Shown: positions 15,236 to 22,618, counted from the stretch's first letter. The stretch is 26,727 bases of DNA from a virus (IMGVR_UViG_2675903433_000037); one strand, 5' to 3'. The notes: generated by a model not told the origin, from the sequence alone. Numbers and translations are program-made.

Positions 15236-15679
15236 TTAAGCACTAAAGAAAAAGTACATTGATAGCTTATAAAGTCCTGTTCCTGCAGCGATGATTGCTG
15301 GAACACCAAGCAATACCGCAAGCTTTGCGTCTGAAATCTTTCTATCGACAGCATCACTTGATGGCTTGTTTGTTAAGGATTCTTTTATAGAGTCCAGACG
15401 TGCAAGAATAGTTATCATATTTTTGTCGATAGCTTTAACGTCTGTTTTAAGTTCATCAACGTCTCGTTTGATATGAGCAACATCGGACTCCAGTTTTGCA
15501 ACTTTTTCAGGCATGTTATCACTCCCAGACCCACTGCTACCACTTGATTGTAGCATGTCCCATCTTTTTCCAGATATACCTGCTAGCTGGGAAGACGCAC
15601 TGGAGTGCAAACAAAATGATTCTGCCGCCTTTGCAATTTTATCATTTAGGTTTGGAGCTTCGTAATAATCGTGTTTCAT
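15236..15679 (-). CDS. Coiled-coil protein with C-terminal membrane anchor, 147 aa (rex-position gene 2)
   Basis: Ser/Gly-rich linker, heptad-like 'VAKLESDVAHIKRDVDELKTDVKAIDKNMITILARLDSIKESL', hydrophobic tail 'LAVLLGVPAIIAAGTGLYKL'. Starts 12 nt after the upstream stop. Confidence 0.6.
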   Translation of the reverse strand: MKHDYYEAPNLNDKIAKAAESFCLHSSASSQLAGISGKRWDMLQSSGSSGSGSDNMPEKVAKLESDVAHIKRDVDELKTDVKAIDKNMITILARLDSIKESLTNKPSSDAVDRKISDAKLAVLLGVPAIIAAGTGLYKLSMYFFFSA

Positions 15680-15691
15680 AATTAATTACGA

Positions 15692-15955
15692 TTAGTTTGT
15701 TTTAGCTTTGTCATGCTGGTCGCGAATGAAGTCAGCCAATTTAAGCATCAATTCTTCGGGCATTCTAATGGTTGCAATGTTGTACTTTATGTTCTCAACA
15801 TCGTCACTTTCATCAACAGGCCATTCAGTTACATTATGAAAAAAAGAAATTGAACCTAGGCGCTGAGAGCCGTCACCAAACGAAGAGTAGCCAAACGCGT
15901 CGGCGTATGCATCGACACAGTTATTTGATTTTTTAACAAGTGTTTTATTACTCAT
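15692..15955 (-). CDS. Hypothetical 87-aa protein with C-terminal RHH-like motif (rex-position gene 1)
   Basis: ATG with a gggaaagg RBS directly downstream of cI. C-terminal 'IATIRMPEELMLKLADFIRDQ' resembles a ribbon-helix-helix strand-helix. Confidence 0.55.
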   Translation of the reverse strand: MSNKTLVKKSNNCVDAYADAFGYSSFGDGSQRLGSISFFHNVTEWPVDESDDVENIKYNIATIRMPEELMLKLADFIRDQHDKAKTN

Positions 15956-17756: not shown

Positions 17757-18686
17757 ATGGCAAACACTGCTGAGATATTCAATTTTCCAGTGCCGGATGC
17801 GGCACAAAAGGAGCCGCGCGTGGCAGATCTCGATGATGGTTATACGCGCATTGCAAATGAGTTGCTGGAAGCTGTAATGCTGGCCGGATTAACACAGCAC
17901 CAGCTTCTGGTCTTCCTGGCTGTCATGCGCAAAACATATGGCTTTAATAAAAAACTGGACTGGGTGAGCAACGAGCAACTTTCCGAGTTGACCGGGATAT
18001 TGCCGCACAAGTGTTCTGCTGCAAAAAGTGTTCTGGTAAAGCGTGGGATTTTTATTCAGAGCGGGCGGAATATCGGCATTAATAATGTGGTCAGTGAATG
18101 GTCAACATTACCCGAATCAGGTAAGAAAAATAAAGTTTACCTGAAAGAGGTAAATTTACCTGAATCAGGTAAGAAAAGTTTACCCAAATCAGGTAAAGGC
18201 ACTTACCCGAATCAGGTAAACACAAAAGACAAACTAACAAAAGACAATATAAAACCTTATTCGTCCGAGAATTCTGGCGAATCCTCTGACCTGCCAGAAA
18301 ACGACCTTCCTGTGGTGAAAGCGGATGCTGCGATTCAGAGCGGCAGCAAGTGGGGGACAGCAGAAGACCTGACCGCCGCAGAGTGGATGTTTGACATGGT
18401 GAAGACCATCGCGCCATCAGCCAGAAAACCGAATTTTGCAGGGTGGGCTAACGATATCCGTCTGATGCGTGAACGTGATGGACGTAACCACCGCGACATG
18501 TGTGTACTGTTCCGCTGGGCCTGCCAGGACAACTTCTGGTCCGGTAACGTGCTGAGTCCGGCCAAACTCCGCGACAAGTGGACCCAGCTCGAAATCAACC
18601 GGAACAAGCAACAGGCTGGCGTGACAGTCGGCAAACCAAAACTCGACCTGACAAACACAGACTGGATTTACGGGGTGGATCTATGA
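17757..18686 (+). CDS. O: Replication initiator O-like protein, 309 aa
   Basis: N-terminus resembles lambda O ('ADLDDGY...RKTYG'); ori iterons lie inside the gene; stop overlaps the P start. The track ORF starts 90 nt upstream; ATG 17757 has a gggagga RBS. Confidence 0.85.
   Translation: MANTAEIFNFPVPDAAQKEPRVADLDDGYTRIANELLEAVMLAGLTQHQLLVFLAVMRKTYGFNKKLDWVSNEQLSELTGILPHKCSAAKSVLVKRGIFIQSGRNIGINNVVSEWSTLPESGKKNKVYLKEVNLPESGKKSLPKSGKGTYPNQVNTKDKLTKDNIKPYSSENSGESSDLPENDLPVVKADAAIQSGSKWGTAEDLTAAEWMFDMVKTIAPSARKPNFAGWANDIRLMRERDGRNHRDMCVLFRWACQDNFWSGNVLSPAKLRDKWTQLEINRNKQQAGVTVGKPKLDLTNTDWIYGVDL
18105..18270. repeat. Origin of replication: four to five palindromic ~18-bp iterons plus an AT-rich tract
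   Basis: Repeated tTACCcgAATCAGGTAAg units at about 18109, 18136 (degenerate), 18155, 18179 and 18201, followed by an A-rich stretch. Confidence 0.7.
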
Positions 18687-19384
18687 AAAACATCGCCGCA
18701 CAGATGATTAACTTTGACCGTGAGCAGATGCGTCGGATCGCCAACAACATGCCGGAACAGTACGACGAAAAGCCGCAGGTACAGCAGGTAGCGCAGATAA
18801 TCAACGGTGTATTCAGCCAGTTACTGGCAACTTTCCCGGCGAGCCTGGCTAATCGTGACCAGAACGAACTGAACGAAATCCGCCGCCAGTGGGTTCTGGC
18901 TTTCCGGGAAAACGGGATCACCACGATGGAACAGGTGAGCGCCGGAATGCGTGTTGCCCGTCGGCAGAATAGACCATTTCTGCCATCACCCGGGCAGTTT
19001 GTTGCATGGTGCCGGGAAGAAGCATCCGTTAACGCCGGGCTGCCAAACGTCAGCGAGCTGGTTGATATGGTTTACGAGTATTGCCGGAAGCGTGGCCTGT
19101 ATCCGGATGCAGAGTCTTATCCGTGGAAATCGAACGCGCATTACTGGTTGGTTACCAACCTGTACCAGAACATGCGGGCCAATGCGCTGACTGACGCGGA
19201 ATTACGGCGCAAGGCTGCCGATGAACTGACCTGTATGACAGCGCGAATTAACCGTGGTGAGACGATACCTGAACCAGTAAAACAACTTCCTGTTATGGGC
19301 GGTAGACCTCTAAATCGTGCACAGGCTCTGGCGAAGATCGCAGAAATCAAAGCTAAGTTTGGGCTGAAAGGAGCAAGTGTATGA
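18683..19384 (+). CDS. P: Replication protein P (DnaB helicase loader), 233 aa
   Basis: 'MKNIAAQMINFDREQMRRIANNMPEQYDEKPQVQQVAQIINGVFSQLLATFPASLANRDQNE...' is near-identical to recalled lambda P. Confidence 0.95.
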   Translation: MKNIAAQMINFDREQMRRIANNMPEQYDEKPQVQQVAQIINGVFSQLLATFPASLANRDQNELNEIRRQWVLAFRENGITTMEQVSAGMRVARRQNRPFLPSPGQFVAWCREEASVNAGLPNVSELVDMVYEYCRKRGLYPDAESYPWKSNAHYWLVTNLYQNMRANALTDAELRRKAADELTCMTARINRGETIPEPVKQLPVMGGRPLNRAQALAKIAEIKAKFGLKGASV

Positions 19385-19413
19385 CGGGCAAAGAAAGATT
19401 CTTCGTTACTTGA
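19381..19413 (+). pseudogene. ren: ren remnant: 10-codon ORF MTGKERFFVT-stop
   Basis: ATG overlaps the P stop (ATGA) as in lambda P/ren, and the first four codons match recalled lambda Ren (MTGKE). Confidence 0.45.
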
Positions 19414-19565
19414 AGAAATACAGTGTTTATTGTTCTTTTGAGATGTTGCGAAAACAGGAATTACCACGGTAAACATTTTGTAGCTGACCCATGCATTGAT
19501 GAAATATTGTGGGTATTTAATAGAGCATAATTATCAAGTTGCGTAAGATGTGGAGTAATGGTATG

Positions 19566-19590
19566 GGCGGTGTTAGCACCGCCTTTAATT
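19566..19590 (+). terminator. Hairpin terminator downstream of P
   Basis: ggcggtg-ttag-caccgcc followed by tttaatt. Confidence 0.5.
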
Positions 19591-19936
19591 AAAGCTCAGA
19601 AAGCTGTGATAATATTTTTTCTGGAGTGGTTTCGTTGGAAATGCTAAATAATACAGCACCTTTGACTGATTCATCTCTCATTTCAATTTCACATGAATTA
19701 TGGTTGTATGAGATTGCATAATTTTTTAATGTTCTTTCGCTTTGCCACCACACCATATTTGCAAGACTTCCGTTATACGTTCTTATCTCGATTGATCCGG
19801 GCAGGGCTTTCCAGATAACACCTCCTAGCAATGTAAGAGCGGCTGCACCAACATTTTTTGCATGATGGTTAGAACGTTCCATTACCCCTTCAGCATAACG
19901 ATGAAGAATCTCTATGTCAGTCGCTTTGATAGTCAT
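19589..19936 (-). CDS. Hypothetical protein, 115 aa, on the opposite strand to flanking genes
   Basis: ATG-initiated ORF opposing the rightward early operon, with AT-rich upstream DNA. No family recognised. Confidence 0.5.
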   Translation of the reverse strand: MTIKATDIEILHRYAEGVMERSNHHAKNVGAAALTLLGGVIWKALPGSIEIRTYNGSLANMVWWQSERTLKNYAISYNHNSCEIEMRDESVKGAVLFSISNETTPEKILSQLSEL

Positions 19937-20164
19937 GTTATTTCCATGTAATTGCTGTGTGAAACGTAGTGTTAGTTAGGTGTTAGCAGAATATAGCATC
20001 AAAGTCGAAACCGGTAGAAAAAATATTGGTGATTATTTCGCTGCATTTGGAACTGGAACAACAATGATTATTAGCATGATTGCTTTTTCCAGTCATAAGA
20101 ATGAGTCGTGTTAATTTTTTCTATTCAATAGGAAATTATCATGTCATCAGAATATGAACAACTA

Positions 20165-20257
20165 CGGTGACTTCTGCGCTAAACGGGGACGTTTATGCGC
20201 ACATACAATCCAAACTCTCTTCTCCCTCCACAGATGCAGAAATACACCTGCGATTTT
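20165..20257 (+). repeat. Direct repeat R1 (93 bp) carrying an RBS and the 5' end of a ylcH-like small ORF
   Basis: About 94% identical to 22487-22579. Contains ggggacgtttATGcgcacatacaat..., with the ATG at 20195 opening a 46-codon ORF. Confidence 0.8.
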
Positions 20258-20414
20258 TTGCATTCGGTGTTTTTGGCAGCCAAGAACAGGGAGTCTCTGT
20301 TTGTCTGGCGGCTAAAGGTGATATGGAAATCGTGATGTCTTAGCCTAAAGTAGTTGCAACAGTTGGAGCGATTATGGTGGTAGTAGTGATCATCGCGCCC
20401 CCCATATGCAAGGG

Positions 20415-20444
20415 TTGACGACATTATTTATCCGGCGCTATATT
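20415..20444 (+). promoter_or_regulatory. Sigma70-like promoter
   Basis: -35 TTGACG, 18-bp spacer, -10 TATATT. Confidence 0.45.
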
Positions 20445-20504
20445 CTGTGCGTTGCCGCAAAATCGGCACACGGGATTGGCGTCCCGGACATCAAAACGAC
20501 GCAT

Positions 20505-20527
20505 AACCGCGTTCGCGGTTTTTTTAT
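20505..20527 (+). terminator. Intrinsic terminator in the leader upstream of the Bro-N gene
   Basis: aaccgcg-tt-cgcggtt hairpin followed by ttttttt, about 60 nt downstream of the predicted promoter. Confidence 0.55.
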
Positions 20528-20688
20528 GCGCAGTGCACGTCTACACAAAAATTATGGTGGGCTGTGTGAGGGCTTCTTCGGAAGCGCCGGATTTCGTTTT
20601 GACCGGTTACGCCAACCTTGCACAGTCCACCACCAGTCGATTGGCGTCGTCGGTGGTGATAGCTCAAATTCAAAACGAGATTATCGCT

Positions 20689-21297
20689 ATGGTCACTCAG
20701 CTCGCATTCCGCGATGTAAAATTCACTCCTATAAATCACAACAACCAGATCTGGTTTACCAGCAAAGAATTGGCGGCAGCATTAAAATATGCCAGCACCA
20801 AAGCAGTAACCGACATCTACAACAAAAATATTGATGAGTTTACTGACGGAATGTCTCAGGTCGTCGAATCAACGACCTCAGGAAATTATCGTAAGAAGAC
20901 TCGCATTTTCTCCCTCCGTGGCGCCCATCTGATCGCCATGTTCGCCCGCACTCCTGTGGCCAAAGAATTCCGCCGCTGGGTGCTGGATATTCTCGATCGA
21001 GAAATTCAACAATCCCCAATCACAAAACAATTCACTGATAACGAACTTTGCACACTTGCTTGGTTATGGCGGGCAAGTGACACAATGTTAACCGCTTGCC
21101 AAAACGTCACTCCGCTTCTTCAGGTAGCAGAACACCGCGAAGCCGGTCGCTTCACTTCAATCGAACAAGAATATCCCCGGATACTCAATAAGGCACAGGC
21201 AATCCTTGCCAGAGAAACGGCACATGTAAAATTCCGGCCGTGGCAGGATGATAAGTGGAGTCGAGTATTGACGCATTTACGTTCTGAACGGCTGTAA
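20689..21297 (+). CDS. Bro-N domain antirepressor-like protein, 202 aa
   Basis: N-terminus 'FTPINHNNQIWFTSKELAAAL...RIFSLRGAHLIAMFARTPVAKEFRRWVLDIL' fits the Bro-N pattern. The track's 281-aa ORF would span the promoter and terminator. Confidence 0.65.
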   Translation: MVTQLAFRDVKFTPINHNNQIWFTSKELAAALKYASTKAVTDIYNKNIDEFTDGMSQVVESTTSGNYRKKTRIFSLRGAHLIAMFARTPVAKEFRRWVLDILDREIQQSPITKQFTDNELCTLAWLWRASDTMLTACQNVTPLLQVAEHREAGRFTSIEQEYPRILNKAQAILARETAHVKFRPWQDDKWSRVLTHLRSERL

Positions 21298-21596: not shown

Positions 21597-22013
21597 ATGA
21601 ATAAAAACGACCTTGAAGCATTATCTGACACTAGGCTTAATGAGGCCAAATGCTTGCTTGATCATGGCTTTTTTCATGGTGCATATTATCTTTGTGGGTA
21701 TGCAGTTGAATGTGCATTGAAGGCCTGTATTGCCAAGTCATTTTTACAACATGAGTTTCCAAACAAAAAAGTCGTAAATGATTCATATACTCATGATTTG
21801 TCGCAACTTCTCAAAATTGCCAACTTACATCAAATTTTGATTGCTGACGCAAAAAATGATGTTTCGTTGGAGATTAACTGGTCGGTCGTTAAAGACTGGA
21901 GCGAGCAATTTAGATACGACAATAACATAAGTAAAGCTATGGCCGAACAATTGTTTGATGCTGTAGGTGACCAAAATTCTGGAGTTTTGAAATGGGTAAA
22001 AGCACACTGGTAA
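21597..22013 (+). CDS. HEPN-like domain protein, 138 aa
   Basis: 'AYYLCGYAVECALKACIAK', 'YTHDLSQLLKIA' and 'EQFRYDNN' resemble the PF05168-type HEPN helical signature. AT-rich gene. Confidence 0.6.
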   Translation: MNKNDLEALSDTRLNEAKCLLDHGFFHGAYYLCGYAVECALKACIAKSFLQHEFPNKKVVNDSYTHDLSQLLKIANLHQILIADAKNDVSLEINWSVVKDWSEQFRYDNNISKAMAEQLFDAVGDQNSGVLKWVKAHW

Positions 22014-22393
22014 TCGGCAGAGAGTTGACAAAAGATATGGAATTCTCAGGTCAATTTTTGTTAAAAAAACTCAAGTTACAGAATTTAACTATTGATGCTG
22101 CAATGTGGTTTTATTACCCAGATCTATCTTGGAGATATATTTTAGTTATCAGTGACTTCTCAGAACGTGGGCCGGCAGAAATATATAGAAAAATCAGTGA
22201 GATAAATAGAAATAGCATATCAAAAAAGTATAAGCCGATACCATTAGAAGCAATTGAGGCTAAGGGGGATTCAGCTTTTGTTTATAAAATGTTAAAAGGA
22301 TTTGCTAGAGTCAACGATGGTAAAGTTCGCGTTTCTAATTCTATGGTAAATGGTTTAGAAATCGTTGACTGTCTGATCTATGAGTTAAAATAA
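21992..22393 (+). CDS. Hypothetical 133-aa protein overlapping the HEPN-like gene by 22 nt
   Basis: ATG with a ggag RBS 7 nt upstream, inside the 3' end of the HEPN-like ORF. No nucleotidyltransferase motif seen. Confidence 0.5.
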   Translation: MGKSTLVIGRELTKDMEFSGQFLLKKLKLQNLTIDAAMWFYYPDLSWRYILVISDFSERGPAEIYRKISEINRNSISKKYKPIPLEAIEAKGDSAFVYKMLKGFARVNDGKVRVSNSMVNGLEIVDCLIYELK

Positions 22394-22486
22394 GAAATCT
22401 CTTGCTGGGTATCATTATTGTTTAAATGACTTTTGATTTTCAATAATCAACTTGTCATAATTAAGTCACCGGAGTTTGAACTCCTC

Positions 22487-22579
22487 CGGTGACTTCTGCG
22501 CTAAACGGGGACGTTTATGCGCACATACAATCTAAACTATCTTCTCCCGTCACAGATGCAGAAATGCACCTGCGATTTT
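22487..22579 (+). repeat. Direct repeat R2 (93 bp)
   Basis: Second copy of R1, preceded by a perfect 9-bp-stem hairpin (tcaccggag...ctccggtga). Confidence 0.8.
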
Positions 22580-22618
22580 CTTTATCCAGCGTTTGACCTC
22601 TGCGGAGGTGAAGCGTGA
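22517..22618 (+). CDS. ylcH: YlcH-like small protein, 33 aa
   Basis: gggga RBS; [21 protein letters not shown]...; stop overlaps the GTG start of ybcN. Confidence 0.45.

Follow-up and report, generated by a model that had tools for sequence, protein, structure and literature searches.

What has taken the place of ren behind the replication gene P of a lambdoid prophage, and what could the newcomer do there? The question is raised by IMGVR_UViG_2675903433_000037, a stretch of viral DNA of 26,727 nucleotides (nt), the whole of which is called the window here. In this window, P is followed by the first codons of ren and then by an AT-rich insert that carries, on the opposite strand, a gene for a protein of 115 amino acids (aa). 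An earlier note on this DNA had described the gene as unrecognised and as possibly moron-like. The best overall explanation, which we hold with about even confidence, is that it is a moron-type accessory gene of the PF18315 family, possibly with a role in phage conflict. The PF18315 family is already known and functionally blank, and its setting in a lambdoid prophage is new.

The features on which the argument draws are the following.
18683..19384, + strand: replication gene P (RefSeq 'replication protein P'), the last conserved gene left of the insert
19381..19413, + strand: ren remnant, beginning in an ATGA overlap with P and reading MTGKERFFVT*, of which only 19381-19395 is ren-homologous
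~19396..19419, + strand: weak AU-rich stem-loop (-8 kcal/mol, z = -0.13), the 'terminator' of the earlier note
19396..20110, no strand assigned: AT-rich accessory insert of ~0.73 kb that replaces ren, without phage match, GC content 35-42%
19565..19584, no strand assigned: GC-rich hairpin between the convergent P/ren′ and 115-aa genes, a likely terminator
19589..19936, - strand: 115-aa gene, an open reading frame (ORF) with an ATG start, PF18315/Vch_cass14 family, WP_000152742.1
19937..20110, - strand: AT-rich 5′ region of the 115-aa gene, ~36% GC, with the sole upstream promoter-like site at 20096-20067
19941..19945, - strand: Shine-Dalgarno-like GGAAA, 5-9 nt upstream of the ATG, from a reading of the sequence
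20111..20272, + strand: right insert boundary, where a 162-nt nin-region junction sequence occurs for the first time; its second copy, 81% identical, is at 22433-22594

The 115-aa gene and the insert that carries it

The 115-aa ORF is almost certainly a full-length member of the PF18315 (Vch_cass14-type) family, to judge from profile comparisons. The Pfam profile PF18315 (VCH_CASS14) is matched at 5.7e-20 with 71.7 bits, above the gathering threshold (cut-off 26.7 bits), residues 12-104 of the protein being aligned to positions 2-92 of the 97 in the profile. The protein also covers phrog_5959 end to end (1-115 of 115) and matches the Vch_cass14 structure (PDB 3IMO) at 1.3e-17, which was the only match in a profile search of PDB sequences. 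The description of the gene as unrecognised thus holds for RefSeq, where WP_000152742.1 is labelled hypothetical, but not for Pfam and UniRef, which identify the VCH_CASS14 domain; the UniRef name is 'Integron cassette protein VCH-CASS1 chain domain-containing protein'. NCBIfam gave no match for the protein.

When 1.84 billion representatives were searched exhaustively with the profile, 468 relatives came up at 50% identity clustering. Most of the 150 listed cluster representatives measure ~110-120 aa, and relatives are typically ~110-116 aa long. The few longer family members contain no informative second domain, with a partial helix-turn-helix of the insertion sequence (IS) type in P0164 only; the idea that they are multidomain proteins was dropped, and their extra residues are probably gene-calling or IS artefacts. 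Between the homologues from Escherichia coli, Citrobacter, Serratia and IMG/VR, synonymous differences are saturated (pS 0.72-0.89) and nonsynonymous ones are few (pN 0.08-0.23). Since pN lies far below saturated pS, strong purifying selection on the protein is indicated, and the gene is, on this evidence, real, intact and constrained across genera. The earlier note had placed a gene on the opposite strand and had named a fragment of a larger disrupted gene as the outcome that would speak against it. The ORF at 19589-19936 (-) is indeed intact, with its profile covered end to end, and the test for a fragment came out negative, as the homologues have the same length and cover the full profile. 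A chance ORF or a fragment, in whose favour only the lack of an identified promoter can be cited, is therefore refuted by the full-length profile match, by the 468 representatives of mostly uniform length and by pN far below pS, and we regard it as practically discounted. Net charge was also tried as a feature separating the prophage clade and was dropped; the isoelectric point is ~5.5-7 in all members compared.

The position of the insert is defined by two junctions. In megablast searches against 50,697 deposited phage records, which set the scope of the phage nucleotide comparisons reported here, the end of P showed 98-100% identity to the corresponding part of P in lambda, 434 and 21. P ends in ...GASV*, and its TGA overlaps the ATG at 19381, so that the start of ren is kept in an ATGA overlap, as had been described earlier. 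The remnant reads MTGKERFFVT and stops after 10 codons with TGA at 19411-19413; an intact ren-homologous ORF of ~96 aa is not present, the homology being limited to ~15 nt. Similarity to lambda, 434, 21 and HK140 (98-100%) comprises the end of P and these first ~15 nt of ren, and all alignments to ren-carrying phages terminate at window position 19394. Because every phage alignment ends there, ren is evidently cut off at a mosaic or recombination breakpoint at 19394/19395, in agreement with the truncation described in the earlier note. From 19396 to ~20125, no deposited phage matches the window. Similarity to phage 82 and to lambda-type nin sequences returns at ~20125-20165, inside the 162-nt repeat copy at 20111-20272. 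The insert is missing from every phage that has the same P-ren junction (megablast), and the GC content across 19400-20200 is 35-42%, compared with 52-57% in P. Read in this way, the alignments place the insert at the P/nin junction, where it has evidently taken the place of ren except for its first ~15 nt.

In E. coli, the insert behaves as a single piece. Separate queries with the gene, the 193-nt flank on its 3′ side and the 179-nt flank on its 5′ side were run against 5426 complete E. coli genomes, and all three were found in exactly the same 181, each in single copy. The gene and the 3′ flank are at least 99% identical in 181 of 181 genomes; the 5′ flank reaches at least 99% in 178 and 95-99% in the other three. 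As the same genomes hold all three segments, the ~0.73-kb stretch acts as one unit. The prophages that host it vary in the immunity region (S24 repressor, or XRE repressor with SIR2) and in the late region, and the insert always lies within one block composed of P, the insert, an antirepressor unit, a HEPN pair and ybcN. IMG/VR contains 20 loci, 14 of them identical to the E. coli form and six at 49-75% identity. Known carriers are prophages, at least one of which is disrupted by an IS, and the E. coli carriers are largely cattle- and human-associated enterohaemorrhagic E. coli (EHEC). A plasmid search with the E. coli protein found just two matches, both in Rhizobiales.

The queried junction (19300-20200) is 100% identical to a lambdoid prophage of E. 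coli O26:H11 strain 11368, whose integration site adjoins a tRNA-Arg gene, and the same stretch is found in other EHEC and non-EHEC strains. The local order in the 11368 prophage is S24 repressor (-), cro-like gene, YdaT-like gene, O and P (+) and the insert with the 115-aa gene, followed on the right by the antirepressor unit, the HEPN pair, ybcN-ninE-rusA and Q. The 115-aa gene thus faces against the pR operon, in the same direction as the repressor gene. Its Citrobacter homologues (73-78% identity) belong to lambdoid prophages as well, lie between the replication genes and Q, and are also oriented against the early operon. In five IMG/VR contigs (49-75% identity), the gene stands opposite to gene runs on both sides, the flanking genes including those for NinB and polymerase III theta on contig L144 and, on L148, genes of the DNA methyltransferase, ParB-like and antirepressor types. 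In all related prophages that were examined (relatives at 49-77% identity), the gene points against its neighbours.

A hairpin terminator directly after ren′, proposed in the earlier note, had to be given up: the AU-rich stem at ~19396-19419 folds no better than chance (80 of 200 shuffles do as well), and it went unreported in the terminator scan. The sole strong structure is the hairpin at 19565-19584, with an 8-bp GC stem (z = -2.2 on the + strand, -3.7 on the - strand), situated four bases from the 115-aa stop codon and ~170 nt past the AU stem. On the + strand, TTTAATT comes next, and because of this T-rich tract the hairpin looks better placed to halt rightward transcripts from P than the transcript of the gene itself. 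The Citrobacter hairpin, at the same position 3′ of the stop codon, has a different stem (AGCGGCA/TGCCGCT versus GGCGGTG/CACCGCC in E. coli) and is followed by T6 on the gene strand. At the other end of the gene, the GGAAA motif is conserved, the stretch ATGGAAAT(A/G)A(C/T)ATG is common to E. coli, Citrobacter and L144, and the upstream region is AT-rich, as noted before (~36% GC over 19937..20110). The promoter-like site within it, ATGACT-18-AATAAT at 20096-20067, matches the consensus at nine of 12 positions. Attempts to pinpoint a promoter by conservation failed, no site being shared across genera. An integron gene cassette was considered as well and set aside: when both strands of the 205-nt 3′ flank were folded as single-stranded DNA, with no dedicated attC model, only short local hairpins and no attC-like long hairpin came out.

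In its architecture, the insert is probably a moron. The AT-rich composition, the 3′ hairpin and the counter-orientation agree with the moron-like reading proposed earlier, which fares less well at the promoter. Three observations count against it: promoter-like sites are no commoner than in shuffles (four versus 3.6 expected), no -35/-10 pair conserved between E. coli and Citrobacter was found, and the E. coli hairpin is not followed by a T-run on the gene's own (-) strand. In the sequence of events that we propose, a foreign, self-contained gene would have landed at the P/nin junction, displacing ren. It would form its own transcription unit, and since it runs in the same direction as the repressor gene, it could be read independently of pR and of the lytic cascade, probably in the lysogen.

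Ligand pocket, relatives and possible roles

Structural data on the family come from Vch_cass14, which is a dimer with a deep hydrophobic pocket offering room for a ligand of ~15 Å; linear ligand density was seen in this pocket, and the ligand was never identified (PMC3548836). Three residues, Tyr14, Arg21 and Asn60, make up the mouth of the pocket, where they bind acetate and water (PMC3548836). In the 3IMO alignment, the native numbering of Vch_cass14 equals that of the 115-aa protein up to residue 64. Eight of the 12 named pocket residues are identical (Y14, R21, A26, A33, I49, N60, Y75 as Y77, I82 as I84), and the remaining four changes (I15A, A22S, A37L and I40V) keep small or hydrophobic side chains. 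The 115-aa protein has all three mouth residues, which do not vary in the close alignment A1; across 62 diverse members, Y14 and N60 are at least 90% conserved, and Arg is the consensus at position 21. The two-layer alpha+beta sandwich fold of 3IMO is the fold predicted for the 115-aa protein, with a ligand pocket that is, by its aligned residues, conserved together with its Tyr14/Arg21/Asn60 mouth. The product would be small and dimeric, with a linear amphipathic small molecule as its ligand. A carboxylate-like contact at the mouth combined with an aliphatic tunnel suggests that the ligand is possibly fatty-acid-like, which we offer as conjecture.

The wider family was surveyed with a degenerate DNA pattern for the GVMxRAxHHA motif in species-representative genomes. 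It returned 120 stretches, ~72 of which are true family loci, spanning Proteobacteria, Cyanobacteria, Acidobacteria, Planctomycetes and Bacteroidetes. In 11 of the ~72 species-level loci, mostly of alphaproteobacteria (L022, L033, L034, L048, L049, L053, L060, L075, L080, L082 and L129), the 3′ end of the PF18315 gene is overlapped (ATGA or +4) by a gene for a conserved 165-aa protein, which has no Pfam or PADLOC match. A gene for a 229-aa protein follows in six of these 11, and in L082 DruA is located 55 bp upstream. The PF18315, 165-aa and 229-aa genes make up an uncharacterised small operon. In five loci, the gene overlapping the PF18315 3′ end encodes a tyrosine recombinase.

Many relatives keep company with genes of conflict systems. 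Their immediate neighbours include DruA (8e-291), PDC-S11 (6.5e-128) and GmrSD/HEC-05 (2.6e-46), along with an HNH nuclease and a methyltransferase resembling type IIG, and other adjoining genes encode Shedu SduA_C (1.1e-34), DUF2971/PDC-S31 (2.7e-51), GmrSD_N and a PD-(D/E)XK protein; one relative adjoins the anti-restriction protein ArdC. In Serratia marcescens, a two-gene islet lies between core genes near icd (L005-L008, 6218-8348) and consists of a gene for a 582-aa AIPR/AbiU-type protein (PADLOC AbiU 5.8e-53) and, after 35 bp, a 67%-identical PF18315 gene. The 582-aa partner was also considered as a homologue of lactococcal AbiUii; this was rejected, AbiUii being a HEPN protein. A metagenomic relative stands between DUF6530 and an integrase, near MmeI and a TacA-acetyltransferase gene pair. 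On an IMG/VR contig (L147, 5335-8348), a 63% homologue adjoins the portal gene of a P2-like element, and a 393-aa gene nearby has weak dynamin-like (LeoBC) PADLOC matches. The position beside the P2 portal gene is a cos-proximal defence hotspot (Rousset et al. 2022, PMC9122126). Altogether, the direct neighbour is a recognised or candidate defence gene in at least 10 of ~74 contexts. The association of PF18315 with defence is suggestive rather than statistical, in the manner of guilt by association. In the literature searched, we did not find the consistent counter-orientation in prophages or the defence-island neighbourhoods of PF18315, a novelty that we consider modest.

Because relatives sit in integron cassettes, by integrases, in a P2-type hotspot and beside AbiU, DruA, Shedu and GmrSD, the product may serve the prophage or its host in conflict, for example in superinfection defence. 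A role in phage-host or phage-phage conflict is our leading functional proposal, and a tentative one. Several results pull the other way. The protein matches no family at E <= 1 among the 5027 models of PADLOC-DB v2.0.0, where matches are confined to the neighbours of its relatives, it has no tblastn match in the 50,697 phage genomes, and literature searches by accession, by Pfam identifier and through integron-cassette defence screens found no phenotype for PF18315. The neighbour survey has a bias of its own, as ~30 of ~96 neighbours were hand-picked for scanning, with no matched control, and mobile cargo of any kind tends toward such variable regions. The 3IMO ligand, never assigned, belongs on this side as well. 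The main alternative has nothing to do with phages: the gene would be a passenger or serve lysogenic conversion. Its product would bind a small molecule, lipid-like or other, to the benefit of host physiology (stress, gut colonisation or signalling), or the gene would bring no measurable benefit and simply ride the P-to-nin block. The only functional clue, a hydrophobic pocket with a linear ligand (PMC3548836), fits this alternative, as do the lack of a matching defence model and the largely cattle- and human-associated EHEC carriers; identity of at least 99% in all 181 E. coli genomes is uninformative on selection within E. coli. Strong purifying selection across genera, an orientation conserved in many independent prophages and recurrent neighbours that are defence rather than metabolic genes all argue against it, and we consider it somewhat less probable than the conflict role.

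Three further explanations were weighed. A counter-defence sponge, with the phage's small dimer sequestering an immune signalling molecule of the host in the manner of Tad1, Tad2 or Acb2, is less likely than either the conflict or the passenger role and, taken by itself, improbable. It is suggested by a small, presumably oligomeric protein with a conserved ligand pocket, carried on mobile elements in a slot once held by the counter-exclusion gene ren, and by the relative beside ArdC. The pocket is, on the other hand, hydrophobic and linear and not nucleotide-shaped, the gene opposes the early lytic operon, the part in which counter-defence genes are usually the first to be read, and many members are chromosomal and placed beside defence genes on the same strand. 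The absence of the protein from deposited phage genomes is matched by a Foldseek comparison with viral structures, which returned nothing at E <= 0.001. The 165-aa gene overlapping in 11 of ~72 loci, the recombinase overlapping in five and AbiU at a distance of 35 bp in Serratia could instead mark the 115-aa gene as the orphan half of a two-gene module, antitoxin-, immunity- or regulator-like, perhaps neutralising an effector encoded elsewhere. Yet the downstream partner varies, many loci are single-gene, including the original Vibrio cassette, and the E. coli insert contains no partner anywhere, which makes this explanation unlikely. The least probable of the three concerns the transcript itself: poorly terminated (-) transcription into ren′ and P would damp replication-gene expression in the lysogen. 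The convergence of the gene with P and the E. coli hairpin without a T-run on the gene strand are compatible with it; strong constraint on the coding sequence at the protein level and a proper T-run terminator after the Citrobacter gene leave it very unlikely.

The conflict role can also be put in a bolder form, doubtful as a whole and below the passenger alternative in our estimate. PF18315 would then be an overlooked conflict component: a small dimer, sensing or sequestering a ligand, that would act by itself, as in prophages and integron cassettes, or head small operons shared with the 165-aa partner, AbiU-type nucleases or recombinases. The copy replacing ren would shield EHEC lysogens from superinfecting phages, or the phage from a host system, by means of a pocket gated by Tyr, Arg and Asn. 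If the gene is expressed and active, it would provide a function for a structurally solved family of 468 representatives across integron cassettes, defence islands and prophages. If it is inactive, it simply adds another hypothetical moron to a mosaic junction already known.

Other cargo and the state of the prophage

To our knowledge, the sole known role of Ren is to let lambda escape Rex exclusion; in phage 434, Ren is annotated 'Rex inhibitor'. The rexAB position downstream of the S24 repressor is occupied by two genes, 15236-15679 (-) for a protein of 147 aa and 15692-15955 (-) for one of 87 aa, neither of which has a RexA or RexB match. These two genes are candidate lysogen-expressed cargo, consistent with ren being dispensable here. 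As there is no recognisable rexAB for Ren to counter, the loss of ren should carry no cost in this prophage.

In the 11368 prophage, an IS3-family element lies after the lysis genes (L001, 28885-30098), and beyond the window an ISCro1/IS66 element (L001, 35026-39052) splits the S49 head protease gene. On account of these elements, the carrier prophage of E. coli O26:H11 11368 is probably defective.

Right of the insert, the window contains further accessory features, listed below.
20415-20444, + strand: promoter-like TTGACG-18-TATATT at IsrK, from the promoter scan
20453-20525, + strand: IsrK RNA (Rfam), 64.1 bits against a gathering score of 50
20505-20520, + strand: terminator with T-run in the IsrK region, from the terminator scan
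20550-20637, + strand: C4 antisense RNA (Rfam), 82.5 bits against a gathering score of 45
20689-21297, + strand: Bro-N/P22AR_C antirepressor-like gene, after the C4 RNA
21597-22013, + strand: gene for a 138-aa HEPN-domain protein (Pfam HEPN 3e-6; PADLOC candidate PDC-M28A 1.8e-7)
21992-22393, + strand: 133-aa partner gene without family match, overlapping the HEPN gene

IsrK and C4 in tandem, together with the antirepressor gene, represent an immunity unit of the P1/P7 c4-ant or Gifsy-1 IsrK type in a lambdoid nin region. The HEPN gene and its 133-aa partner may be a toxin-antitoxin or defence pair. The IsrK/C4/antirepressor unit and the HEPN pair form 2.3 kb of cargo bracketed by the 162-nt direct repeat (20111-20272 and 22433-22594, 81%), each copy of which carries the start of the same short ORF. 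Since the repeat matches the nin junction of phage 82 and lambda, it looks like a recombination handle for cargo exchange.

Comparison with known systems

The closest structural reference, Vch_cass14 (3IMO), is encoded in a Vibrio cholerae integron cassette, in contrast to the lambdoid prophage insert described here, which has no attC-like flanking hairpin. Both are stand-alone single-domain proteins of PF18315, and the 115-aa protein differs by a 2-residue insertion around positions 65-66. With lambda Ren, the gene shares the slot directly after P, in which the first five codons of ren are retained; unlike ren, it is encoded on the opposite strand and comes from a family without relation to Ren, the homology ending after ~15 nt. 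The prophage also differs from lambda in having no recognisable rexAB.

Tad1, Tad2 and Acb2 are anti-defence proteins that act as small-molecule sponges. The 115-aa protein resembles them as a small oligomer with a ligand pocket (a dimer is predicted from Vch_cass14) carried on mobile elements. It differs from them in having no sequence or fold relationship, in its hydrophobic and linear pocket and in a gene that opposes the early operon.

Lambdoid morons, as defined by Hendrix and colleagues, include bor and lom of lambda and the morons of HK97 and HK022. Like them, the insert lies between genes that are adjacent in related phages and has a deviant base composition, a 3′ hairpin of its own and an orientation independent of the surrounding operon. 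The differences are that the promoter scan found no convincing promoter and that in E. coli no T-run follows the hairpin on the strand of the gene.

The last comparison is with the prophage defence hotspots of P2 (gpA-gpQ) and P4 (Rousset et al. 2022, PMC9122126). In contrast to the cargo of these hotspots, PF18315 is absent from PADLOC. The likeness lies in the arrangement: the P-to-ybcN interval is a slot of ~3 kb between conserved genes, holding three swappable cargo units (the insert with the 115-aa gene, the IsrK/C4/antirepressor unit and the HEPN pair), and the 63% homologue lies beside the portal gene of a P2-like element. If the 115-aa gene is expressed and active, the P-to-nin junction of lambdoid prophages, among them those of EHEC O26, O103, O111 and O157, would be a cargo hotspot like those of P2 and P4.

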